Positions 8,551 through 54,022 of a stretch of 64,000 nt of DNA are shown piece by piece. Position numbers and translations under genes: made by a program. Numbering within the stretch: the first letter of the stretch is position 1; the number at the start of each line of letters is the position of its first letter. Under the pieces are notes generated by a model. It was given only the letters and a program-made list of their open reading frames with translations. It ran no database searches and was not told where the DNA came from. The stretch is from Escherichia coli (GTDB lineage Bacteria; Pseudomonadota; Gammaproteobacteria; Enterobacterales; Enterobacteriaceae): the NCBI RefSeq assembly GCF_011045215.1, contig NZ_CP049201.1. The stretch is one strand, 5' to 3'.

Positions 8551-9498
8551 TTAGCTGGTCAGAACACTCAATGCTGTTTGTCTGAAACAGGAGTAGGCTT
8601 CTTCCCAGTCAATCTGTGTATTACCAAATACCATCGGTTTAACAAACCGTTGAAAACGCAATTTGTGTACAGGATCATCCCGGAGTGCATCCAGCCCTTT
8701 CTTAAGTTCATCAACTGGTGAGCTACAAAATTGTGGGTACTGGTTACCATAGCGTTCAATATCCTGTTGAATACATATCTGAACAAAATTTTTCAATACA
8801 GGAACATTCACACCTTTTTCCCTGACAATGCAGTAGTTGTCGTAAATGTGACGTACCAGGAACTCATCATCCTGTTGTTCGGGATTACGAAGATGTGCTG
8901 CTGTTCTTCGCATCATGGAGATGAGCTTTTCAGCCTGAGTGGACAAAATGGTGGCACAGGGGAATGCTGTTACAGGTGTACCTTTACCCGTTAACTCCGT
9001 GACAAGTGAATAAATATCTCTGCTTTCCGGATGTTCCAGCAGGGTGCTTTCCATCAACTCCAGCTTAATAAATGGACGAAGACAGGGGACTTGCGCAAAT
9101 GTCTGGGGATAACGTACCGAGATTTCGTTATAACGATACTCATCACGTGTTATACGGGCGTTTTCATTATCCAGGCTGAAAATGTCAGAATTATTAATAA
9201 CATCCGTGATTATTTGCACGATTTTCTTGCGAATTTTTCTTCTCTTGTCTCTGCCATTTTGCATAAAGTTCTCTGTTGGCACGAGCTTTATATCAATATC
9301 TTCTGACATTCTGTTCAATGAGATACCTGCTTTTGACAATGCGGTACCTCCTGCAAACACGAGAGTATGTGTTTCTGGTTTTATTTCTTTTAGTAACTTT
9401 AAAAGATTAACCACAAAATAATCTTTTTCGACGATAGCGACAGATTCAATATCCAGTGCGTTGGCAACGTCAGGAAATAATGATGTTAATTCAGGCAT
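8551..9498 (-). CDS. AbiEii-family nucleotidyltransferase (toxin of an AbiE-type TA/abortive-infection pair)
   Basis: 315 aa with the GGTAL...R.SEDIDI nucleotidyltransferase signature; overlaps the upstream AbiEi-like gene by 8 nt. Confidence 0.7.
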   Translation of the reverse strand: MPELTSLFPDVANALDIESVAIVEKDYFVVNLLKLLKEIKPETHTLVFAGGTALSKAGISLNRMSEDIDIKLVPTENFMQNGRDKRRKIRKKIVQIITDVINNSDIFSLDNENARITRDEYRYNEISVRYPQTFAQVPCLRPFIKLELMESTLLEHPESRDIYSLVTELTGKGTPVTAFPCATILSTQAEKLISMMRRTAAHLRNPEQQDDEFLVRHIYDNYCIVREKGVNVPVLKNFVQICIQQDIERYGNQYPQFCSSPVDELKKGLDALRDDPVHKLRFQRFVKPMVFGNTQIDWEEAYSCFRQTALSVLTS

Positions 9499-9886
9499 TG
9501 ATTTTACTTTTCCCTACAACTAACACTCTTTTAAAGCGAGGAGGTGTTTTGAACTCCGGAGACACCGGAATCTGTGTGGACTGACCTTTATTGTAGCATT
9601 CTGTTGCGCCGATCAAGCTGTATCTGATATTCAAAAGATCCAGGGCTTCGGTGATTACAGCAGCAGAGCCACCAGGTGCTGCAGGCATTATTTTTCCTGT
9701 AATAACGTTGCGACGGGCTTTGGTGTAAACACCATAGCCCACCTTCATCAACTTACCTTCGTTTACCAGTGTACGAAGAGCTCTGCCAACCTGATCATAG
9801 CCAGCGATATCCCTGAAGTCATCCCGGGTGAACACATAACGCTTTGAACGGTTCAGTCGGGACTGAATACGGTCTTTTGTAGTCAT
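9491..9886 (-). CDS. AbiEi-family antitoxin / winged-helix regulator
   Basis: ~131 aa from the ATG at 9886 (GGAGG upstream); wHTH-like N-terminus; operon partner of the AbiEii gene. Confidence 0.55.
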   Translation of the reverse strand: MTTKDRIQSRLNRSKRYVFTRDDFRDIAGYDQVGRALRTLVNEGKLMKVGYGVYTKARRNVITGKIMPAAPGGSAAVITEALDLLNIRYSLIGATECYNKGQSTQIPVSPEFKTPPRFKRVLVVGKSKINA

Positions 9887-18911: not shown

Positions 18912-20042
18912 ATGACCGGACGTAAAAACAAATGTGTCAGAAAAAATTGTAACAATCAGGTTTTCTCAGTAAAAATGGCAGTGGAGAAAAGACTGTGCAG
19001 AAAACATTATGAGAGGTTTTGTGAGCTCAAAAAAAGAAGAGAGCAAAATCCTGTTCACAGATTAAATGAAGCATTGCCAAGAAAGATAAAAGAACCCAAA
19101 AGTAAGAAAAAATTAGTAAAAGAAAGAGAAATCATTAACAGCAGAAAAAAACATAAACAGGAGCAGGGACCATCGCTGGCTGAACTTAATAAAAAAGTTC
19201 GTGAGATACTGAAAACTCCGGCATGGAGAACGCTGGAAACGAGAATTCGAAGAAATGGCATCACATTTAAGTCAAAAGCAGAGTTAGATGCGCTTTCTGA
19301 ACTTTATGCAATTTATTCATGGGTTTCATATTGCAAACGGGGCGATAATTATTCTGTGTGGTTTTTGAATTGTCCGGATGTAAATATAAATCTTCATGTG
19401 TGCGAATGCCGGTCTTCTGAAAGCGATTGTTATCTGCCATCCCGTTTTATTATCCTCCCAGCTCCATTAAGGCAAAAAGTAAAAAGAAAATACTCTGCTA
19501 ATTCGTCTGGGGTACCAGGACATAATGATTCAAAAAGTCTTTATAAGACAGTTTTGTCTGTTTGTGGTGGGAAAAGAGAAACCGAATTGTTCTTTTATTC
19601 ACTGCCAGTAAAGACTAATCATCATCCTTACTGGATTAAAAGTGGTGTGGTTAAAAGATTTTCTCCTGTTTTTGGTTTGTTGTTTTATGAGCAGGAAAGG
19701 TTAACAGGAGGTGTTTTTCGTTATGTGTTGATAAGGTTTTATAATACTTTTAAGGAGAATTTGTTTTTTGTTGAGATTGTCTCGTGCTGTTTTCTTGTTG
19801 AGCTTTTTCATGATATTGATTCGTTTTTTATAAATCAACGATTAAGTAAGCTTGAAAGTTTTATAGATAAGTGGAAGGAGGGTAAAGAAATCTGGATAAA
19901 AGCATATCTACAACTTATACATAATACATTGGGAATAACTGAAACAGAAAAACTCGTCAATCTATATAATTCATTTTTTACTGATAAAGTGGTTCTCTGG
20001 GATGAATCAGTAAAAAAAGTTAAGTGGATTTATGAGAAATAG
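18912..20042 (+). CDS. Hypothetical protein, Cys/His-rich basic N-terminus, AT-rich gene
   Basis: 376-aa ORF; N-terminal C-x4-C-x15-C-x2-H-x4-C then a Lys/Arg-rich stretch; no family recognised. Confidence 0.4.
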   Translation: MTGRKNKCVRKNCNNQVFSVKMAVEKRLCRKHYERFCELKKRREQNPVHRLNEALPRKIKEPKSKKKLVKEREIINSRKKHKQEQGPSLAELNKKVREILKTPAWRTLETRIRRNGITFKSKAELDALSELYAIYSWVSYCKRGDNYSVWFLNCPDVNINLHVCECRSSESDCYLPSRFIILPAPLRQKVKRKYSANSSGVPGHNDSKSLYKTVLSVCGGKRETELFFYSLPVKTNHHPYWIKSGVVKRFSPVFGLLFYEQERLTGGVFRYVLIRFYNTFKENLFFVEIVSCCFLVELFHDIDSFFINQRLSKLESFIDKWKEGKEIWIKAYLQLIHNTLGITETEKLVNLYNSFFTDKVVLWDESVKKVKWIYEK

Positions 20043-21576
20043 TACCATTTAACTGAAAGCCACCATAACGTCTTTTTGATTACATTCATGATAATGCATC
20101 TCATTTTGTTTTCGTTTTTTTGTTCAGGGAAATTTTCCGAACATCAGTGATAATGAGGGTTTTGTTGTTTTTGTTTCTGCAATGTTTGAGGGCTGTTCCT
20201 GGAGATGATTCGTTGTTTGTGAGCAAGAGGTGGTCCGCTTTTCTGGACAAGTTTTGTATTTGTTGAGTGGTGAAATGGAAGTAAAAAGAGCCCCTTTCTG
20301 GCAATGACTGAAAAAGTCAGTAGCGTGTGACAGTAAAAACTAACATAAAGTGATTATCGTATGATTATGACAATAACTTATAACTTTTATGAAAAGAATA
20401 ACAGAAACTACGAGGCCATAGCAGATTCCTGAGATCATGTTTTCTGAGGTAGAGAAAATAATTCCAGAGTAAATCTGTTCTGTTTTTAGGACAGAAAACT
20501 CCATGTTGGCTGTAAAAGTGAAAAATCAACACCCAGTATGCATGGATGTCTGAAGATGTTGAGAATGTCGGTATGATACTATATACACATATTTTACTCA
20601 GTATTTTTACTAAGCATTTCAGTAAGTGTTATACACGTATTTTCATAAACAATTCTACAAGTGTTTTCATTAAGTATTGTTATACACATTGCTTTGTCTG
20701 ATACACATCCAGTTTAGTAAATTTGTTAGTCCTGTTTTTACGATAGCTAAAATCAGTTAACGTCACTACAAAACTCCCTGTCCTGTTTAAGCAGTCAATA
20801 TGCTATTCGATTTTACTGATGTTACATTTAACCTTTTATGAGTTTTCGTGTTTTTAGTCGTTAACCTGAGACAAGTGTTTTTATGTAAAACGCAAATCCG
20901 GCTGAGATAACCTGGCGTGATTTACTGTGTGCTTACGATGATTTTGTTAAATGGTTTTATAGATGATTTTGTAGCAATGAGATTGATGAGATGATTAACT
21001 GGCCCTGGTGTTTTTTCTCAGCGCAAGGTGATTATCTTCATCATAAGGCTCTTTTCAGGAAAAGCGTGATGATTGGTTCTGGTGTTTTGATTCAGATGAG
21101 ATTTACGTTATTGATGGTTAATCGTTTTTATGGTGTGTTGAAAAGTAACGTTTTCAGGATAAGAAAATCGATTCTGATATTGGTGGTTTTTGTTCTTGTG
21201 GCGGGGTTATCTGTAAACAGGTTTTAAGCGCGCTATTCGGCTCTGTGATTGAGTTGTGTGGTTAAGCTGTAGGTTTTGGTGTTGTTGTTGATTTACAGAG
21301 CCAGAAAGCGTTCTGATTGCGTTTTTGGTGTTTTGTTTGTACGTTCTGTGGATCCGTTTCCCTTCTGACTTTTCTCGTCGTCCATGTCGTTTTTAAATCC
21401 ATTCATGCTGTTGTTGCGTGTTTTGTTGTCGTGTGCAGGATTATCTTTTCGTTACGGGACGATTCATTCCGTTTTAATCAGGAGCTATTGGCGTTGCTCA
21501 TTGGTGGGATGCCGTAAAGTTTTACCGCGGCGATTAATGATGTGAAGTCAATCCAAATCAACGGAGATCTCTCATC

Positions 21577-22308
21577 ATGAATCAACCAATACACAATGCT
21601 TACTGGTTATCCCGTTTTGAAAGTATTCTCAACAGTGACCTGGTGCAACACCTTGCCGTTTCGTTAATCCGGGTGGATTTACGTTTCCCTGAGTATATGC
21701 CTGCCAGCATCATGGATACCGATTTAGATTCAGCGGTGATTTCTCGTTTTTTCGAATCCCTGAAAGCCAAAATCCAGGCTTACCAGCGGAAAAAACGACG
21801 TGCCAACAAGCGTGTGCGTGCAACCACTCTGCGTTATTTCTGGTGTCGGGAGTTCGGCAAGATGTATGGCAGGAAACATTATCACGTGATATTACTGCTC
21901 AACAAAGATACCTGGTGCTCGCTCGGGGATTTCAGCGAACCATCTTCGCTGGCGACGCTGATCCAGCTGGCATGGTGCAGCGCTCTGCATCTTGAGCCCT
22001 GGCAGGGTAATGGACTGGTTCATTTTTCCAGGCGGACTTCTTTCCGTCAACCGACTTCATCTGATGCTCCCCCTTCTTCCGATGATACGCCTTTGCCAGG
22101 TGGATGCTCTGATACCAGGAAGGCTTCTGACAAAAAATCTGGTGGATCCGCTGTACTCTGGGTCACGCGTGGTGATGTGGAAGCGGTACAGAAAGCCATG
22201 GAGAGAGCCCTTTATCTCGTGAAGTATGAGACGAAGCAGCATGACGGTTCAGGTCAACGTAATTATGGTTGCAGTCGTGGGGCGGGGCGTCTACTGGATG
22301 GCAGGTGA
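21577..22308 (+). CDS. YagK/YfjJ-family protein (inovirus Gp2-like by recollection), paralog 1
   Basis: 243 aa; shares block pattern with the three ORFs at 26673, 27467 and 28641 (R.DL.FP..., HYH.hLL..., ALYL.KY). Confidence 0.55.
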   Translation: MNQPIHNAYWLSRFESILNSDLVQHLAVSLIRVDLRFPEYMPASIMDTDLDSAVISRFFESLKAKIQAYQRKKRRANKRVRATTLRYFWCREFGKMYGRKHYHVILLLNKDTWCSLGDFSEPSSLATLIQLAWCSALHLEPWQGNGLVHFSRRTSFRQPTSSDAPPSSDDTPLPGGCSDTRKASDKKSGGSAVLWVTRGDVEAVQKAMERALYLVKYETKQHDGSGQRNYGCSRGAGRLLDGR

Positions 22309-23478: not shown

Positions 23479-25083
23479 ATGAATCCTGCTTATATGCAAG
23501 CCTTGCAGATATCCCCCCACTTCCCCGCCAATATAACCAGGCGATTATTTCCTGGTGAGCTTGCATTCCTCATTGAAGACTTATATGCAAGTACCCAACT
23601 TCCGCTGGAGCTCATTTTTAATACTGTACTGGCAACGCTCTCACTCTCCTGTCAGTCACTGGTTGACGTTGTTCATCCTCACACCAACATGCCGGAACCC
23701 TGCTCACTTTATCTGTTGGCAATCGCAGAGCCAGGCGCGGGAAAAACAACGATAAACAGACTGGTGATGAACCCCTGTTACGAATTTGCTGATCGACTCA
23801 TTCAACAATACGAAGAGAGAAACAAAGATTATAAGACTGAACTACAGATCTGGAATACCCGGCAGAAAGCGCTTGCTGCCAATTTAAGAAAGGCTGTTAA
23901 CCGGGGGTATCCGGGGGAACAGGAAGAAGAGGCACTGCGTAATCACGAAAGAAATAAACCGACACGTCCGGTTCGACCGAATTTTATCTATGAAGATGTT
24001 TCGCTTAAAGCGCTTGTGGAAGGGCTCAATGAACATCCTGAGGTAGGGGTTATTTCTGATGAGGCGGTCACTTTTTTCAGAAGCTATCTGAAAAATTATC
24101 CGGGCCTGTTGAATAAAGCATGGAGTGGGCAACCGTTTGATTTTGGACGGGCTGACGAGAAATACCATATCACGCCACGACTGACATTTTCGTTAATGTC
24201 CCAGCCGGATGTCTTTACGAATTATATAAATAAAAATGACGTACTGGCGTGGGGAAGCGGATTTCTTTCCCGGTTTCTGTTCAGTCAGGTTGTAAGTTCT
24301 TCCTGGATACGTGATTATACGAGAGGCGAGTTCAGAACAATACCAACCCTGGAGAAATTTCATAAAAAGATTAACGGATTTCTGTTAAGCCATAACATTA
24401 ATTCCCCCGGCACGAGCACCGAAAGGAAGACATTAAAACTTGCGAAAAAAGCGTTGGGGGAGTGGCAGGAAAACCAGATTAAGATTGAAAGAAAAACGCT
24501 TGCAGGAGGGGAGTGGGAACACATCAGAGATATTGTGCTGAAAGCAGGTTCTAATATACTGAGGATAGCGGGTTTATTCACCTGCTATTGCTATAAAGAT
24601 GCTGAGGAAATTGAATCAATTGCGCTTTTTAAAGCTATGCATCTCATGGACTGGTATCTGGAGGAAGCGAGCACAATATTTTATCCCATGTCTGAACGAT
24701 GCCAGTTTGAACAGGATAGCCGTGAGCTGTATACATGGATTATGACCCGAATCAGACAGAATAACTGGTGTGCTATCAGGAAAACAGACATTGAAAGATA
24801 TGGTCCCAATCGTCTGAGAAGAGCAGAAAAACTTACACCTGTGCTCAATCAGTTAATCTGTCAGGGGTATTTATGTATCATCAGAATGCGAACGCATCAG
24901 ACACTTTATGTTTCTGTTCGTTATAATAATGGTTGCATCCCTCCTTTTGGCGCAATGTCTTACGAATCATTTGAGATTATTCCACCCGAGAATAGCCATA
25001 ATGCGAAAACATATCACGTTAATATTCCACCGGAATTAATTCCGCCATTTGCGTTACCTTTTTCAACCCATGGCTTATTTTGA
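23479..25083 (+). CDS. YfjI-like P-loop protein (DUF3987-like)
   Basis: 534 aa; Walker A AEPGAGKT; AGGAGG RBS upstream; integrase-proximal module gene in CP4-57-like islands. Confidence 0.55.
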   Translation: MNPAYMQALQISPHFPANITRRLFPGELAFLIEDLYASTQLPLELIFNTVLATLSLSCQSLVDVVHPHTNMPEPCSLYLLAIAEPGAGKTTINRLVMNPCYEFADRLIQQYEERNKDYKTELQIWNTRQKALAANLRKAVNRGYPGEQEEEALRNHERNKPTRPVRPNFIYEDVSLKALVEGLNEHPEVGVISDEAVTFFRSYLKNYPGLLNKAWSGQPFDFGRADEKYHITPRLTFSLMSQPDVFTNYINKNDVLAWGSGFLSRFLFSQVVSSSWIRDYTRGEFRTIPTLEKFHKKINGFLLSHNINSPGTSTERKTLKLAKKALGEWQENQIKIERKTLAGGEWEHIRDIVLKAGSNILRIAGLFTCYCYKDAEEIESIALFKAMHLMDWYLEEASTIFYPMSERCQFEQDSRELYTWIMTRIRQNNWCAIRKTDIERYGPNRLRRAEKLTPVLNQLICQGYLCIIRMRTHQTLYVSVRYNNGCIPPFGAMSYESFEIIPPENSHNAKTYHVNIPPELIPPFALPFSTHGLF

Positions 25084-26672
25084 AATAAACTAACACAGAT
25101 AAAACGAAAAAAATCAACCTTCATTCGAAGGTTGGTGGTAAGGCGTTTTGCATATCCCGCATCTGTGCAAATGTTCACCATCTATGGGGCATGAACGAAA
25201 ATTTCTCTGAAAAAATCGCTACGGTAGCAACAGTAGCAGCACATGCACTATATATGTGATTTGATTTTGTTTTCATAATGACCTGCTGTCAGAGTTGGTT
25301 GAATACAGGAGTGTGCGCACTGGTGGAAGAATGGCTTTCGTTTTTTATAAAAAGAAAGTGAACAGAAATGCTATTTTTAACATGTCTGAAGCTAATCATA
25401 TAACCATATTATGTGAGTTTTTATATATAACTTTTTTTGATTCTTGTCGTGATGAGTGCCGGCGTATATGACGATGTTGGTCTCTATTATGAATAATGAA
25501 TGGTTATCAGTCTGTTACTGGCAAGAGATGCTGTTCAGGTTTCAATGGGAGATTGAAGAAAAACGATTTGATCTTTTTCTGTAAGAGAATGTTTTTCTTA
25601 GGCTTGTATTCAGGACGTAGGATTTCTTATTTTTACTCATCAGATATGGATAATTTTAATTTAGGTTTATTACTATAATTAATATCTGTCTCTTTATTTT
25701 CTATCCATCTTTGTCATTCATCTCTCCTCTCTATCTTTACACATTCCATTACTATTATTTTCATCCAGTTATACTCACTCATGTCCTTCTCCAGTCTTCA
25801 CTGTCACTATTATAACAATATCCTCTCCATCCATATCTCAATCATGACGATTGTAACTCATATGATATTCAGGTGTATTCTCTACCATTCTACTGACAGA
25901 TATTCATCTGTTCTCATGTTCAGTGAGACAGTAATTGATTTTAATCTTGTCCGTCATGCGTTATCATTGTTTAACAATAATTGTTTATCTGAAGTGTTTT
26001 AACTATTCTGGTGAACATCAATTCTTCTGTCATCACTGATTAACTGAATGTTTACTCTTTGATAAGGTGTCTATGATTCCGTCATGTTTAACAGCGCAGG
26101 ATAAACAATGAAATTAACAGGGTGAATTCCTGATTATGTCTGTTCGTTTCTGATTATCTTTTATGTTAAACAAAATGAAAATTATCCATCAATGGTATGT
26201 TTCATTCTGGTACCGTGTACCCGTTAACGTTCATATCTTGAACATGAGTTGTTTTTAACAGATTAAATGAGAGTGTATGATTTTATCAGGTTACAGATAT
26301 GTGTTGGCCTTGTACACGTTTTTTCAGACTCACTGAGAGCAAGTTTGTAGTTTATGATGTTATTGGTCGTAATATGTTTCTTAATCTCCTGGTAGTGGGG
26401 GTTTATTGCGTATTTTGCAGTGTTTCATTGTGTTTTATTGAATCTGTATTTTTTTACTCCTCGTTTATCTCATTTCTTTAGTCAATGCCATCAGATGACC
26501 CATTCCCTTCAGCACAACGTTGCGTGTCGTTAATAACCGACGTATCCATTCTGTTACAGCATGCCTGATAAATACCGTCTGTAAGTTATTACCGTTTTAG
26601 ATCTGATTATGAGCGAAAGCATTAATTCGCTTACAGCACTTAAAACGTCATTAACTTTCAGGAGTCATCAGC

Positions 26673-27239
26673 ATGCCTAAATCTTACACACCAAACTGGT
26701 TTTTTACCGCTTTATTTGACAATCACATCAATCAAATGATAGCACGCTATTCCTGCCTGCGGGCCTTACGCATGGATTTCTTCTACAGGAAAGATACGCC
26801 TGATTTCTTACAACCTGATCATCGCTGGCTTGAATTACAGTTGCGTATGCTACTGGAGCAGGTGGAACAATTTGAAAATATCGTTGGCTTCTTCTGGGTG
26901 ATTGAATGGACGGCTGATCATGGTTTTCATGCGCATGCGGTTTTCTGGATCGATCGTCAGAGGGTTAAAAAAATATATCCCTTTGCGGAGCGGATTACGG
27001 AATGCTGGCGGTCTATTACGCATAACTGTGGTTCGGTGCACCGTTGTACATATCAGCCGCATTATGCATACAACATCAACATCCCCGTGCGCCATAACGA
27101 TCCTGAAAGCATCGATAATATTCGAGGTGTCCTGCATTATCTGGCGAAAGAAGAGCAAAAAGACGGACTGTGCGCATACGGTTGCAGTGAAGTTCCTGAA
27201 CGACCTGCTGCAGGGCGTCCTCGTAAGCCTCACTTCTGA
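26673..27239 (+). CDS. YagK/YfjJ-family protein, paralog 2
   Basis: 188 aa; motif blocks shared with the other paralogs; AGGAG RBS. Confidence 0.55.
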   Translation: MPKSYTPNWFFTALFDNHINQMIARYSCLRALRMDFFYRKDTPDFLQPDHRWLELQLRMLLEQVEQFENIVGFFWVIEWTADHGFHAHAVFWIDRQRVKKIYPFAERITECWRSITHNCGSVHRCTYQPHYAYNINIPVRHNDPESIDNIRGVLHYLAKEEQKDGLCAYGCSEVPERPAAGRPRKPHF

Positions 27240-27466: not shown

Positions 27467-28072
27467 TTGTGGGCTGCGCATAACGGAGCATATCTTATGA
27501 ATGCTATTCCTTATTTCGACTATAGCCTGGCACCCTTCTGGCCATCTTATCAGAGCAAAGTTATCGGCGTCCTTGAGCGTGCGCTACGTGAGCAGTCCGG
27601 CTCCCGGATACGGCGGATCCTGCTTCGTCTACCGTGTGAATATGACAGTACCTTCAGCAGCAGAAAGACCTGGTTTGGTATGGATTTTATCGAAACCGTC
27701 AGTGCGCTGATGAATGCAACACCCGGACGTGACCTCTGCTGGCTCCTGACCCGTCATCCTGAAAAACCGGAATACCACGTGGTGCTGTGCGTCAGACAGG
27801 AGTATTTCGATGGCCCTGAGCTGGATCGGTTGATTCTGGATGCCTGGAGTAACGTGCTGGGCTTCGCGTCACCAGGTGAAGCAAAGCCGTACCAGAAGCA
27901 GATCACCCGGGATGTGGTACTGGATCGCCGGTCACCGGACTGCGAAGCCCTGTTTAAAGACCTTATCTGGGCGTTCAGTGATTTCGCCCGCGCTCGTCGT
28001 GATGTGTGCGATCCGGAAGCCCGTTGCCTCGCCGGTAATCCCGGGTATCCCGGATCTGCAGGGCCGTTCTGA
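27467..28072 (+). CDS. YagK/YfjJ-family protein, paralog 3
   Basis: 201 aa; shared motif blocks (LLRLPCEY..., YHVVLCVRQEYF). Confidence 0.5.
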   Translation: MWAAHNGAYLMNAIPYFDYSLAPFWPSYQSKVIGVLERALREQSGSRIRRILLRLPCEYDSTFSSRKTWFGMDFIETVSALMNATPGRDLCWLLTRHPEKPEYHVVLCVRQEYFDGPELDRLILDAWSNVLGFASPGEAKPYQKQITRDVVLDRRSPDCEALFKDLIWAFSDFARARRDVCDPEARCLAGNPGYPGSAGPF

Positions 28073-28640: not shown

Positions 28641-29204
28641 GTGCAAATAACCGAAGTATTACTTTCAGAGCCGGGAGACATCCGGCGTTTTGTTCAGCAG
28701 GCGGTGGACCACTGGCCGCGTCTGCTGGCAGTCCACTTCACGCTCCATTCGGCTGAAGGAAACATCAACGGACAACAGGTTCAGACATTCTGTACTTCCT
28801 TTTACCGACAGGTACACGAACGTATTACTGAACGTAATCACACGGTCAGTCCATCATCGCCGATGGTATTACGCTGGCTGCGGGAACAACATGGAGGAGC
28901 AACAATACGATGCCTGTTGCTGCTCAGTCAGACGAGCATTTGCCATCCGCGAGCCAGTGCCACGGTTGATGAAGAATGTTCGCAACTGGTGGATTTACTA
29001 CAACAGACCTGGCGGGTGATAAGTACTGGTGGACAATGCCGGGGGGAAAGGTGTTTTATGGTTGTCCGGCCTGATACATCAGGCCAGTATGATGCGTTAA
29101 AAACAACGGCGATGTGTTTTACATCACCGGTGATGTCCACCACAATCCGGTGTGGCGTTACCGGCGATGATGACGAAACATTACGGCGCAGAGCGCTTTT
29201 CTGA
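28641..29204 (+). CDS. YagK/YfjJ-family protein, paralog 4
   Basis: 187 aa, GTG start; shared motif blocks (AVHFTLHSAEG..., IRCLLLLSQT). Confidence 0.5.
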   Translation: MQITEVLLSEPGDIRRFVQQAVDHWPRLLAVHFTLHSAEGNINGQQVQTFCTSFYRQVHERITERNHTVSPSSPMVLRWLREQHGGATIRCLLLLSQTSICHPRASATVDEECSQLVDLLQQTWRVISTGGQCRGERCFMVVRPDTSGQYDALKTTAMCFTSPVMSTTIRCGVTGDDDETLRRRALF

Positions 29205-29302
29205 CTGCCACATCTGATTTCGGGTGTGTTTCGGCAAGGTTGTTCAGTAAGGCATTCCTTCGTAAAATCAGCCTGTTTTTTGCACGACGGAAACCGGCAG
29301 CC

Positions 29303-32152
29303 ATGAAAATCTGTCTTTATCATACCCTGAATCCAGAGATCATCCCGGGCTATAAAAAATTTGCACAGGCCATTGCGGCTGATAACTTTGTTCAGGCTGA
29401 TGTTCGTAAAATTGATACCAATCTTTACCGTGCACGGCTCAGTATCCGGGATCGATTGCTGTTTTCGCTGTATCGTTATCATGGTGAAACTGTCTGCCTT
29501 GTACTGGAATATATTCGCAATCATGCCTATCACACTTCACGTTTTCTTCGCAAAAATGTGGTTATTGATGAAGACTGCGTACAACAACAACCTGTGCCGG
29601 ATCCTGTTGATATAGCGACTGAAACACTGACGTATATCAATCCGTCTCACGGGCGTTTTCATCGTCTGGATAAAATGTTGTCCTTTGATGATGAGCAGCA
29701 GGCGTTGTACGAACATCCGCTACCGCTGGTGATTGTGGGATCTGCAGGGAGTGGTAAGACGGCGCTGGTACTGGAAAAAATGAAGCAGGCCGCGGGTGAT
29801 ATACTGTATCTCAGCCTCTCCACATTTCTGGTGGAAAAAGCACGAACGCTTTATAACGCGTCGGGGGAAGGGAGTGATGCGCAGAATATTGACTTTCTGT
29901 CACTGACGGAATTCCTGGAAACCCTGCGCATTCCGGAAGGCCGGGAGGTGACCTTCAGGGCATTCAGCGACTGGCTGCCCCGCAACAGGACCACCGTTGC
30001 GCTGGGGTCTGCCCATACCCTGTATGAGGAGTTCCGGGGTGTGATTGGTGCGGCCGTTTCCGGCAACGGACCACTGTCCCGGGAGGTGTATCTGTCGCTG
30101 GGGGTACGGCAGTCGCTCTACAGTATGGATGATCGCCCGACGGTCTATGCCCTGTTCGAACGTTATACGGCATGGCTGAAACAGTCGCGTCAGTATGACA
30201 GTAATCTGCTCAGTCATCAGTACCTGCCGCTGGCAGAGCCCCGTTACGATGCCATTTTTGTCGATGAAGTTCAGGATATGACGCCTGTTCAGTTGCAACT
30301 GGTACTGAAAACATTGCGTCATCCCGGCCAGTTTTTGCTTTGTGGTGATGCCAGTCAGATTGTTCATCCCAGCTTTTTCTCATGGAGTTCACTTAAGAGC
30401 CTTTTTTTCCGGCAACACCAGGGGAACAATGCTGCCATTAATATCCTGCAGGCGAATTACCGTAACGGGCACCATATCACCGCACTGGCTAACCGTCTGC
30501 TGAGACTCAGACAGGCCCGGTTCAGCGCCATTGATCGGGAAAGCCACCATTTCGTCAGAAGCTGTGGTCAGACGGAAGGCGCAGTCCGGTTACTGGAAGA
30601 CCGGGAAGAAAACCGACAGGAGCTGAACACCAAAACCTCACGTTCGAATCGGGTGGCGGTCATTGTGATGCATCCGGAACAGAAAGTACAGGCACGTTGC
30701 TGGTTCAGTACACCGCTGGTTTTTTCAGTTCAGGAGGTTAAGGGGCTGGAATACGAAACGGTGATCCTCTACAACATGGTCAGCGGTGTCCGGCAGGCGT
30801 TTGATGATATCTGTGAGGGGATTTTTCTGGCGGATCTTGAGGGTGAGTCCCGTTATTCCCGTCCGCGGGACAGGCAGGATCGTTCAGCGGAAATCTACAG
30901 GTTTTTTATCAATGCGCTGTATGTTGCGTTCACCCGTGCCACGCACAACGTGTATCTTGTTGAACAGCAGGTGGCGCATCCGTTGTGGCGCCTGCTTGCG
31001 CTCACGCATCAGGAAGAGCAACTGAATCTGCAGGAGGAGATTTCCAGCCGTGATGAGTGGCAGAAAACTGCACATTTGCTTGAGAAACAAGGGAAGCAGG
31101 AGCAGGCGGATACCATCCGCAGCCGGCTCCTGCAGCAGTCTGAAGTACCGTGGCACATCATTACCGCAGAGGAAGCCCGGCAGTGGAAAGAACAGATCCT
31201 CGCAGGCACGGCCAGTAAAGCCACACAACTGCAGGCGCTGGAGTACAGTCTGATTTACTCCCTGTTTCCGCTGTATAATGCGCTGTACCGGGAAGATTTT
31301 AAGCCCACCAGACAGTCCAGGGCGAAGAGTCTGCTGTTGCTGGAGCAGAAATATTTCCGGCCATACTCGGTGAATAACCCGGTTGCGGTGTTGCGGGATA
31401 TTGAGCGTTATGGTGTTGATCACCGCTCGCCGTTTAATCTTACTCCGCTGATGTCAGCAGCCCGGGCAGGCAACATTGCACTGGTTCAGTTACTGCTTGA
31501 CCGTGGTGCAGATCCCTTGCTAATCGGTAATGACGGGCTGGCAGCTTATCATCACGTCCTGTCAGCGGCGGTCAGTACGCCCCGTTATGCGCAACAGAAA
31601 AGTGCGCAGTTGTATACCCTGCTGAGACCAGAAAGTCTCTCACTGCAGGTGGAAGAACGGCTCATCAAACTGGACAACCGGCAGATGGCAATGTTTCTGG
31701 TGCTCCTGATGCAGGCACTGTTCTTCACGCATCTGGGGAGTGCTCTGGCCTTTTCGGAAGCTTTCAGTGCGGCACGACTGGCAGAGTGTGTGGCTCACCT
31801 TCCTGAAGCGTTGTTGCCGGAGCGCCGCAAAAGAAGGAATTATATCAGCAGCCAGCTTTCTCAACATGAGGTTAACAGCAAAAACCCTTATGGAAAAAAG
31901 CTCTTTCTGAGACTGAATCATGGGCAGTATATTCTTAATCCGGGGCTTAAAATCAGACAGGGTGACGTGTGGTGTGCGGTTTATGAGTTGCAGTCACCGG
32001 AAGATCTCGGTCATGATTTGCAGACTTATCTGCAGGACATGTCTCCGGAATTCGTGGAGATTCTGGGGGGGAGGAAGGATTTTTACAAACACAGTGAGGA
32101 GGTTGTCGGATACTGGGTGGAGGTGATTCGTCGTGCTGGTCTGAAAGCGTGA
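29303..32152 (+). CDS. Large SF1 (UvrD/RecD-like) helicase with unknown N-terminal domain and C-terminal ankyrin-like repeats
   Basis: Walker A GSAGSGKT, Walker B FVDEVQD, motif III GDASQ, motif V KGLEYETV, motif VI VAFTRAT; ankyrin-like LTPLMSAARAGNIALVQLLLDRGADPLLIGNDG; ATG at 29303 (ORF track starts at a TTG at 29240). Confidence 0.7.
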   Translation: MKICLYHTLNPEIIPGYKKFAQAIAADNFVQADVRKIDTNLYRARLSIRDRLLFSLYRYHGETVCLVLEYIRNHAYHTSRFLRKNVVIDEDCVQQQPVPDPVDIATETLTYINPSHGRFHRLDKMLSFDDEQQALYEHPLPLVIVGSAGSGKTALVLEKMKQAAGDILYLSLSTFLVEKARTLYNASGEGSDAQNIDFLSLTEFLETLRIPEGREVTFRAFSDWLPRNRTTVALGSAHTLYEEFRGVIGAAVSGNGPLSREVYLSLGVRQSLYSMDDRPTVYALFERYTAWLKQSRQYDSNLLSHQYLPLAEPRYDAIFVDEVQDMTPVQLQLVLKTLRHPGQFLLCGDASQIVHPSFFSWSSLKSLFFRQHQGNNAAINILQANYRNGHHITALANRLLRLRQARFSAIDRESHHFVRSCGQTEGAVRLLEDREENRQELNTKTSRSNRVAVIVMHPEQKVQARCWFSTPLVFSVQEVKGLEYETVILYNMVSGVRQAFDDICEGIFLADLEGESRYSRPRDRQDRSAEIYRFFINALYVAFTRATHNVYLVEQQVAHPLWRLLALTHQEEQLNLQEEISSRDEWQKTAHLLEKQGKQEQADTIRSRLLQQSEVPWHIITAEEARQWKEQILAGTASKATQLQALEYSLIYSLFPLYNALYREDFKPTRQSRAKSLLLLEQKYFRPYSVNNPVAVLRDIERYGVDHRSPFNLTPLMSAARAGNIALVQLLLDRGADPLLIGNDGLAAYHHVLSAAVSTPRYAQQKSAQLYTLLRPESLSLQVEERLIKLDNRQMAMFLVLLMQALFFTHLGSALAFSEAFSAARLAECVAHLPEALLPERRKRRNYISSQLSQHEVNSKNPYGKKLFLRLNHGQYILNPGLKIRQGDVWCAVYELQSPEDLGHDLQTYLQDMSPEFVEILGGRKDFYKHSEEVVGYWVEVIRRAGLKA

Positions 32153-53500: not shown

Positions 53501-53770
53501 ATGCGATTAATACCACCCGTGACAAGAACAGTGTATAATATTAATAACCTACATTTGTTTGCAGATGGTTGTAAGATTATAAAAAACAGCCTGAAGGAAC
53601 AAAGGGAACAATGTGGTCAGATAGCGTTTTCAATAAATGAAATAGCACGAATAACGGATATGAATATCCGCCATGTCTGTGTATGCTTAAGTATTCTGGT
53701 TTGCGCTGAGGTGATGAGCTGTATTACCAATGAATGTGGGGAAAGAAAGTGGTTTCTTGTAACGAAATAA
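53501..53770 (+). CDS. PapI/FaeA-like small winged-helix regulator (putative)
   Basis: ~89 aa, GGAGG RBS; C-terminus ...RKWFLV like the PapI-family ...YWFLK ending. Confidence 0.45.
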   Translation: MRLIPPVTRTVYNINNLHLFADGCKIIKNSLKEQREQCGQIAFSINEIARITDMNIRHVCVCLSILVCAEVMSCITNECGERKWFLVTK

Positions 53771-53806
53771 AACTATAAGAGAAGGGGACTACACAGAGGG
53801 GGGATT

Positions 53807-54022
53807 ATGCATTTAAAATATGATGGTTGTGAAGTAATCATTAAATTTATGGCGGAACGTGATACAACATTATTACCATTAACTACACGACAGATTGCGG
53901 ATGGTTGTGCCATGTCTGTTTATGCTGCGCGTTATTATTTACAGAAACTCAGCAAGCTGCATGTTGTTGGGTCTGACAGAGTCGGTAAAGGTAGTGCTGT
54001 TCGGTGGTATTTGCAGATATAA
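53807..54022 (+). CDS. PapI/FaeA-like small winged-helix regulator
   Basis: 71 aa; VYAARYYLQKL...AVRWYL matches the PapI block DYQARYYLLLL...ATYWFL. Confidence 0.55.
   Translation: MHLKYDGCEVIIKFMAERDTTLLPLTTRQIADGCAMSVYAARYYLQKLSKLHVVGSDRVGKGSAVRWYLQI

Follow-up and report, generated by a model that had tools for sequence, protein, structure and literature searches.

A candidate single-gene defence protein joining a RelE-like domain, a UvrD-type helicase and ankyrin repeats in an Escherichia coli island

We analysed a stretch of 64,000 nucleotides from Escherichia coli (contig NZ_CP049201.1, assembly GCF_011045215.1), here called the window, and in particular one long gene on its plus strand that encodes a helicase with additional domains at both ends. 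The open reading frame (ORF) is uninterrupted from 29240 to 32152 and comprises 970 aa if counted from its TTG codon. The initial annotation had placed a protein of ~950 aa at 29240-32152, which is borne out. All orthologues begin at the residue encoded by the ATG at 29303, M1 is nearly invariant in an alignment of many taxa, and the copy in E. coli EC958 is annotated from the equivalent ATG. Therefore, the true start is probably the ATG at 29303, and the product would be 949 aa long. The features of the gene, all on the plus strand, are as follows.

29303..32152, plus strand: coding sequence, 949 aa and a stop codon (from the ORF list, the conserved start and the ratio of nonsynonymous to synonymous substitution rates, dN/dS)
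29303..29557, plus strand: RelE/YoeB/HigB-fold domain, aa 1-85, putative endoribonuclease effector; candidate active-site residues K36, R43, R45, R51, E69, H74 and Y76, with the motifs 'LYRARL' (aa 41-46) and 'NHAY' (aa 73-76)
29558..29677, plus strand: linker, aa 86-125, poorly ordered (predicted local distance difference test, pLDDT, <50 at aa 103-129; mean identity 33%)
29678..30997, plus strand: UvrD/GajB-like helicase core of superfamily 1A (SF1A), aa 126-565 (Pfam, PADLOC, motifs, hhalign)
29666-29701, plus strand: Q-motif region 'LDKMLSFDDEQQ'
29738-29761, plus strand: Walker A motif GSAGSGKT, aa 146-153
30263-30277, plus strand: motif II, DEVQD, aa 321-325
30344-30358, plus strand: motif III, GDASQ, aa 348-352
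30455-30466, plus strand: motif IV, NYRN, aa 385-388
30740-30763, plus strand: motif V, KGLEYETV, aa 480-487
30923-30943, plus strand: motif VI, VAFTRAT, aa 541-547
30998..31162, plus strand: helical connector, aa 566-620, with invariant W586, Q596, G597, K598 ('QGKxEQA'), P616 and W617 ('VPW') (alignment, AlphaFold2 helices)
31163..31627, plus strand: ankyrin-like helical-repeat solenoid, aa ~621-775, putative protein- or ligand-binding sensor
31409-31570, plus strand: single canonical ankyrin (ANK) repeat, aa 703-756 (Pfam)
31628..32002, plus strand: conserved basic α/β domain, aa 776-900, with the motif 'RRKRxxYISSxLSxxE...F-R-xxx-G-x-Y-xxNP...W'
32003..32149, plus strand: variable helical tail, aa 901-949 (7% mean identity across phyla)

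The ORF is not due to chance, because it has thousands of full-length homologues and its overall dN/dS against the ~90%-identical copies of E. coli EC958 and the Shigella plasmid pWR501 is 0.14-0.17. The values are lowest, 0.05-0.13, in the first 85 codons, which encode the RelE-like domain; in the ANK region they are ~0.22-0.26, indicating purifying selection, and in the C-terminal tail they reach 0.25-0.81. In an alignment of 108 sequences, residues 1 to ~900 are conserved and the tail is variable. The gene encodes a single protein of three parts: a RelE-like domain, a UvrD-type helicase, and an ankyrin and C-terminal region. A copy on the chromosome of E. coli RM8082 (locus L001, 15001-17912) is 99.3% identical and is annotated as frameshifted; the gene is thus degenerating in one lineage at least.

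We modelled the N-terminal 135 residues from an alignment of 19 sequences. The fold predicted for aa 1-85 is β-α-β4-α, with pLDDT above 90. In place of the N-terminal domain of ~150 aa without a known motif that was described initially, we find a domain of ~85 aa with a predicted RelE/ParE-superfamily fold, followed by the linker. The Foldseek comparison that the initial annotation had proposed for this domain pointed to RelE/YoeB-like structures, with weak E-values; the top matches were YoeB/ParE, YafQ, HP0892, Sa2YoeB and Cami1, with probabilities of 0.9-0.99. The toxin fold makes the domain a plausible effector.

For the conservation pattern of the domain, we compared 79 homologues that span many phyla. 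K36, Y42, R51, E69, H74, Y76, S79 and F81 are invariant in 100% of these sequences, positions 45 and 80 are always occupied by R or K, and the seven candidate active-site residues (K36, R43, R/K45, R51, E69, H74 and Y76) are all invariant or nearly so. In RelE, the catalytic residues are K52, K54, R61, R81 and Y87, and in YoeB they are E46, R65, H83 and Y84. Overlaid by eye on the RelE sequence, which we have verified, 'Y42-R-A-R-L...R51-L-L-F' of the present protein falls on 'Y51-K52-I-K54-L...R61-L-V-Y', and 'H74-A-Y76' on 'R81...Y87'. If the domain were ParE-like instead, it would be a gyrase or topoisomerase poison, and the protein would be a helicase-toxin directed at DNA, stopping DNA replication in the invader or the host. 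The fold is that of the superfamily to which ParE belongs, and a YoeB/ParE entry is among the top matches. Still, this reading is quite unlikely, as RelE, YoeB, HigB and YafQ ribonucleases (RNases) outscore ParE structures in the fold search, and the invariant pattern K/R...R...E...H-x-Y resembles the catalytic sets of RelE and YoeB.

In the helicase core, the five motifs of the initial annotation, those now numbered II, III, V and VI and the Walker A motif, were all located, and the key residues of the helicase motifs are invariant (100%) in 79 of 79 homologues. Judged from these motifs, the set is of the UvrD/PcrA type (SF1A) and not of the RecD type, so that only the first half of the earlier label 'UvrD/RecD-type' stands. 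In Pfam, the core has weak matches to AAA_19, UvrD-helicase and UvrD_C, and also weak PhoH-type (RNA helicase-like) ones. The core is very divergent from the helicases with solved structures: a PDB search with it yielded only marginal matches, to PcrA (E 2e-3) and UvrD.

The C-terminal part (residues 575-949) was modelled with AlphaFold2 at pLDDT 91.5. The initial annotation had claimed at least one ankyrin-like repeat here, and the model agrees: the canonical repeat recognized by the Pfam profile lies within a solenoid of the ANK fold, and is followed by the α/β domain. The latter carries an invariant basic and aromatic motif and possibly binds nucleic acid. The C-termini of some members differ, in that the ANK array is longer, the ANK module is duplicated, or a DUF1186 domain with a SEC-C motif is present, and such variable ends fit a swappable sensor. 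In particular, the tails of the members P0125 and P0131 carry an extra DUF1186 domain and a SEC-C zinc motif. In Endozoicomonas (locus L006, 11873-12922), a separate gene encoding DUF1186 and SEC-C lies 3 kb downstream of the helicase gene, a possible link between fusion and neighbour. In SecA, a SEC-C motif binds to SecB and to ribosomes.

We compared the protein with named families and known defence systems. PADLOC-DB v2, including its PDC and HEC candidates, yielded only partial matches to the helicase core, and no NCBIfam family scored above its cut-off. The best NCBIfam score was that of RecB (32 bits, cut-off 696), PcrA scored 26 (cut-off 911) and HelD 25 (cut-off 419), and the UvrD, PcrA, Rep, RecB, AddA and HelD models as a group scored 17-32 bits with cut-offs of 400-965. 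This agrees with the initial view that the protein belongs to no named defence system. Nor did we see homology over the full length to a helicase of repair or conjugation, which would have spoken against a defence protein, the matches to UvrD, PcrA, Rep, RecB and HelD being partial and far below the cut-offs. The present protein has the SF1A motif set in common with UvrD, PcrA and Rep and differs from them in its terminal domain additions. In full-text searches of the literature, we found no paper that names the protein accession, or that describes a protein with ankyrin and UvrD parts in connection with defence, BREX or pINV, the invasion plasmid of Shigella.

The best PADLOC match of the helicase core is GajB (E 4e-12), where aa 312-456 align to profile positions 174-313 of 540. 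Nhi matches at aa 313-401 only (E 8e-6), and the Nhi-type nuclease domain is absent. Such matches span only 80-150 residues of profiles with 370-625 positions. No gene for the Gabija component GajA, an OLD-family ATPase-nuclease, is adjacent in the window, in the E. coli and Shigella copies or in the 93 loci of homologues that we surveyed; at one of the loci (L015), an unrelated AAA_15 gene lies 7.7 kb from the helicase gene.

The closest precedent is ArmD of ARMADA type II, which combines a RelE-like domain with a GajB-like UvrD helicase in one protein (PMC12458937; bioRxiv 10.1101/2025.09.15.676423, 2025 preprint). All four ARMADA II genes and the Walker A lysine of ArmD are needed for phage defence, and the paper makes no mention of ankyrin (PMC12458937). 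We found ArmD (WP_000218177.1, 704 aa, E. coli NCTC 12900) in E. coli O157:H7, the true ArmD locus being L102, and compared it with the present protein. Both have an N-terminal RelE-like domain and a GajB-like UvrD helicase, and the helicase cores are remotely homologous (hhalign probability 97%, E 4.6e-11, 23% identity). However, the identity of 21-23% is limited to the helicase core, so the two are not full-length orthologues; ArmD has ~240 aa before Walker A and lacks the ankyrin repeats and the 385-aa C-terminal region, and its N-terminus could not be aligned with our N-terminal domain by hhalign. Moreover, ArmD acts only together with ArmA (BrxHII/RapA-like), ArmB (a PglX-like methyltransferase) and ArmC (a YprA-like helicase), encoded in a strict operon. 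By contrast, the present gene lacks ArmA, ArmB and ArmC: upstream of it are YfjJ/AlpA-type genes, downstream an MFS (major facilitator superfamily) transporter gene or insertion sequence (IS) elements, and no partner occurs in the 93 loci. With ArmD as a precedent, the protein is less unprecedented than the initial annotation assumed. In its working, the family would resemble an ArmD-type module outside ARMADA, as a stand-alone variant with a sensor region of its own.

A second relative in design is CnuH of the CoCoNuT systems, whose helicases contain an RNase-toxin-like (RTL) domain of the RelE/colicin-D fold that is recognized by structure comparison only (eLife 2024, PMC11090510). Compared by description only, the two share an SF1 helicase and a RelE-like domain, in the case of CnuH within a predicted RNA-targeting defence system. 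They differ in that CoCoNuTs are multi-gene systems of the McrBC type, the RTL domain lies between an OB-fold and the helicase, and no ANK repeats have been reported. To the toxins RelE, YoeB, HigB and YafQ and to Cami1, a CARF-RelE accessory protein of type III CRISPR, no sequence similarity was detected; unlike these, the present protein is fused to a helicase and ANK repeats and has no antitoxin gene. Effector, NTPase and repeat sensor are also combined in the Avs and NLR-like STAND proteins and in RNase L; here an SF1 helicase takes the place of the STAND ATPase or pseudokinase, and the proteins are not homologous.

The family is widespread. A word-index search yielded 4424 relatives, the best 120 of which are almost all ~950 aa long, while an exhaustive profile search gave 67 full-length clusters at 50% identity among the best 150. 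When one genome per species was scanned, at least 390 species carried the family. The best 80 loci come from Gamma-, Beta-, Zeta- and Deltaproteobacteria, Nitrospirae, Aquificae, Deinococcota, Bacteroidota, Chlorobi, the Planctomycetes-Verrucomicrobia-Chlamydiae (PVC) group and Firmicutes, and are 40-53% identical over residues 1-900. Such identity across phyla suggests extensive horizontal transfer. Within E. coli, 115 of 5426 complete genomes (2%) have the gene, and it is present in the sequence type 131 (ST131) strain EC958. None of 50,697 phage records contains a homologue, and a phage origin was rejected on this ground.

Among plasmid records, 133 match, and 103 of these are Shigella pINV (S. 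flexneri, S. sonnei and S. dysenteriae). A plasmid search with the Halomonas homologue also placed Shigella first, and the gene is on every sampled pINV lineage; plasmids that carry it include those of Shigella, Piscirickettsia, Methylosinus, Deinococcus and Thermus. On the Shigella virulence plasmids (locus L016, 8938-11850, pWR501; locus L017, pSS_046), IS elements flank the gene, which adjoins shf-capU-virK-lpxM(msbB2) and has ospG and ipaH9.8 in its vicinity. Almost every one of the 103 pINV records has an intact copy, as do 127 of the 133 matching plasmid records, pINV itself being heavily eroded by IS elements. The gene is patchily distributed and mobile, on plasmids as well as in islands. 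Its persistence on an eroding plasmid, together with the toxin-fold domain and the toxin-antitoxin (TA) loci adjoining some copies, could mean that it serves the mobile element itself, as an addiction-type module that stabilizes plasmids or islands such as pINV or as a means of excluding rival plasmids. This reading, in which the targets are mobile genetic elements and which overlaps with defence, is unlikely, as no antitoxin-like partner or labile component is seen, many copies are chromosomal and outside recognizable mobile elements, and we found no study of pINV stability in the literature that names the gene.

Ankyrin repeats, the location near ospG and ipaH9.8 on pINV, the Piscirickettsia plasmids and the Endozoicomonas symbionts could also suggest an ankyrin effector secreted by host-associated bacteria to act on eukaryotes. 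However, the gene is equally found in Halomonas, Nitrococcus, methanotrophs, purple sulfur bacteria, Nitrospirae and other bacteria that are free-living, no secretion signal or chaperone gene is seen, and a helicase of 950 aa joined to a RelE-fold domain is an architecture of the kind found in prokaryotic conflict proteins. Of all the explanations considered, we believe this one the least.

In order to find conserved partners, as the initial annotation had suggested, we clustered 1095 neighbour ORFs of the 93 loci all against all and annotated 12 contexts with Pfam. No neighbour family recurs in the 93 loci except generic ATP-binding cassette (ABC) ATPases at random distances, the 12 contexts have no neighbour in common, and a small ORF that might encode an antitoxin is conserved on neither flank. 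The gene behaves as a single-gene unit, as was proposed initially, and on Shigella pINV it stands alone. This also distinguishes it from a type II toxin-antitoxin module, which has an adjacent gene for the cognate antitoxin.

Many neighbourhoods are of the defence or conflict type. One homologue (48% identical, locus L021) lies between pglZ and brxL inside a type 1 BREX operon; as this was seen at one locus only, it looks like embedded cargo and not a core BREX gene, and the family does not regularly belong to BREX. Another homologue adjoins BrxR, a type I restriction-modification (R-M) system and an OLD/GajA-like ATPase, and others adjoin HipA, MazE-PIN or further TA genes. E. coli islands with the gene also carry AbiE and SIR2 genes. 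In a subclade of four loci from gammaproteobacterial metagenome-assembled genomes (L027, 3300-7206; L028; L033; L034), a SNF2 helicase of ~930 aa and a gene of ~360 aa follow within 11-95 nt downstream. This SNF2 helicase matches the ZorD, DpdE and BrxHII-like models of PADLOC, with E up to 6e-134, and the layout recalls the BrxHII-like ArmA of ARMADA; it could be a multi-gene variant or mere shared synteny. A near-identical copy of our gene on 'plasmid A' of E. coli C5 (locus L009, 1-9712) has two groups of genes ~10-20 kb away, a SLATT gene that adjoins a truncated SIR2 pseudogene and an intact cluster of SIR2, ATP-binding protein and KTSC genes, apparently further defence cargo of the same type of island.

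An alternative that draws on the remaining neighbourhoods is a non-immune, accessory factor of RNA metabolism or ribosome surveillance, in which the RelE-like domain would dock the helicase on stalled ribosomes or RNA and the motor would remodel or degrade mRNA in stress or quality control. The high full-length conservation across phyla, the ordinary neighbourhoods in Halomonas, Pistricoccus and Roseospira, the members that end in DUF1186 and SEC-C, and the weak PhoH-type matches are all in line with this. On the other hand, a gene found in 2% of E. coli, on plasmids and islands and in clusters with BREX, R-M and TA genes is not distributed as a housekeeping function predicts, and the UvrD/GajB-like helicase belongs to a clade of DNA helicases. 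We consider such a role rather improbable.

In the window, the gene is part of an island. After the gsp type II secretion operon, the order is AbiEii/DUF6088, DUF4942, CbtA/YeeU, RadC, an antirestriction gene, DUF932 and DUF905, followed by a YeeP-like GTPase, YagK/YfjJ-type genes, YfjI, an AlpA-like helix-turn-helix (HTH) gene and then the helicase gene. This annotation confirms the context described initially, i.e. a position after an AlpA/YfjJ block in an island with TA and antirestriction genes. Immediately upstream of the helicase gene are a YagK/YfjJ-type gene, a hypothetical gene, the AlpA-like HTH gene and a 187-aa ORF. The other features of the island are as follows.

8551-9885, minus strand: AbiEii/AbiGii-family nucleotidyltransferase toxin and adjacent DUF6088 gene (PADLOC AbiEii, E 5e-125)
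21577-22308, 26673-27239, 27467-28072 and 28641-29204, plus strand: YagK/YfjJ ('inovirus Gp2')-type or Gp2-like ORFs
23479-25083, plus strand: YfjI-family (DUF3987) protein (PHROG 'DNA helicase', E 1e-41; primase families)
33008-38252: metabolic-looking cargo block directly downstream of the helicase gene, with an MFS transporter (minus strand), an M20 aminoacylase (minus strand) and a 774-aa HTH-domain regulator (plus strand)

The AbiEii and DUF6088 genes at the island edge, after the gsp/yghD operon, look like an AbiE-type abortive-infection or TA pair, and the YfjI-family protein may be the product of an island replication or primase-helicase gene. Beyond the cargo block, there are a gene for an EAL-domain protein, an IS66 element and a fimbrial operon of the chaperone-usher type. 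The G+C content is very low (34-38%, compared with ~50% elsewhere) at 19000-21000, 25000-27000, 43000-44000 and 50000-54000, which marks the island as a mosaic with horizontally acquired DNA. The segment 25100-26670 has no long ORF, and the corresponding region of strain C5 contains IS remnants. No tRNA gene, sought as an island boundary, was found in the window.

The position of the gene after YagK/YfjJ-type genes in E. coli islands raises the question of whether the helicase serves the replication or transfer of the island, working with these 'inovirus Gp2'-type proteins as Rep, PcrA and UvrD do with rolling-circle initiators. In strain C5, the 187-aa upstream ORF is indeed called 'inovirus-type Gp2' by the Prokaryotic Genome Annotation Pipeline (PGAP). 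However, its Pfam match is weak (E 0.037), it is common to enteric islands only, being absent from Shigella, Salmonella and all distant loci, and the explanation leaves the RelE-like and ANK domains aside, so that we regard it as very unlikely. The last two YagK/YfjJ-type ORFs match Pfam YagK_YfjJ_C only weakly (E 0.32 and 0.037), and a pairwise comparison of the two showed no similarity. On the same grounds of a weak match and restriction to enteric islands, the 187-aa ORF was rejected as a partner of the helicase gene or a Gp2-like initiator.

The explanation we favour, with a probability of roughly one half, is that the gene encodes a self-contained conflict or defence protein in a single polypeptide, with an effector, a motor and a sensor. 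The RelE/YoeB-like domain would be the toxic effector, most likely an endoribonuclease acting on mRNA, possibly in the ribosomal A site; the UvrD/GajB-like SF1A ATPase-helicase would be the motor or switch, and the ankyrin module with the basic α/β domain would be the sensor or target-binding part. As there is no antitoxin gene, the toxin-fold domain has to be restrained within its own polypeptide, and in uninfected cells the RNase-like domain would be kept inactive in cis. The helicase or the C-terminal module would then engage a cue from the invader, for instance structures of foreign nucleic acid or a protein encoded by a phage or plasmid. This would lead to ATP-dependent remodelling and exposure of the RelE-like domain, and the exposed domain would shut down translation, resulting in growth arrest or abortive infection. 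Our analysis shows the identities of the domains, the strict conservation of the ATPase and putative RNase residues, the single-gene organization, the mobile and patchy distribution and the neighbourhoods of the defence type; the RNase activity, the autoinhibition, the trigger and the defence phenotype are all what we infer.

Several points weigh against this explanation. The N-terminal domain is assigned by fold comparison only, and the Foldseek E-values are weak, the best being 8.5e-3 and none below 1e-3. The domain had no match in Pfam (RelE/ParE PF05016 and relatives) in 19 members or in NCBIfam in 10 members, nor was it matched in a profile search of the PDB. Aligned by hhalign to YoeB, RelE and a 23-sequence RelE profile, it gave probabilities below 1%; the profile is narrow, as the search for RelE homologues gave only sequences at least 68% identical to RelE. 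The placement of the conserved residues on RelE K52/K54/R61/R81/Y87 was made by eye. Conservation in the family, including the ANK region, is unusually high for an immune sensor. In a search of ~93 loci seeded with BREX, type I R-M, HipA and PIN neighbours, the gene was embedded in BREX once and adjacent to a type I R-M system twice, and several homologues, including those of Halomonas, Pistricoccus and Roseospira, have ordinary or metabolic neighbourhoods. ArmD depends on three partner proteins, so the present protein may not be active by itself. Finally, the role in defence is deduced from architecture and context. With these points taken into account, the protein is a credible candidate for a single-gene defence protein.

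A bolder version of the same explanation, which we offer only tentatively and consider doubtful, is that this would be the first stand-alone helicase-coupled RelE-type nuclease, in which an ANK/C-terminal sensor and a UvrD-like motor would release an RNase of the ribosomal A-site type or deliver it to translating or invader RNA. It would then be a new one-gene immune system, spread over hundreds of bacterial species, E. coli ST131 (EC958) and all sampled pINV lineages of Shigella, and a minimal autonomous ancestor or derivative of ArmD.

The design principle has precedent, and the points of interest are the autonomy of the protein, the breadth and conservation of the family, its presence on pINV and in ST131, and the ease of assay. 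The hypothesis is directly testable, as an assay involves one gene only, has clear point mutants to draw on and can be run in E. coli. If the protein is active alone, it would show that a RelE-type toxin can be controlled by a helicase in place of an antitoxin and a signalling domain, and it would be a compact model of effector delivery by ARMADA ArmD and the CoCoNuT RTL-helicases. Activity of the protein on its own would also give a function to a conserved, intact and overlooked gene of the Shigella invasion plasmid and of pandemic E. coli ST131, with a possible bearing on phage susceptibility, plasmid stability and phage therapy.

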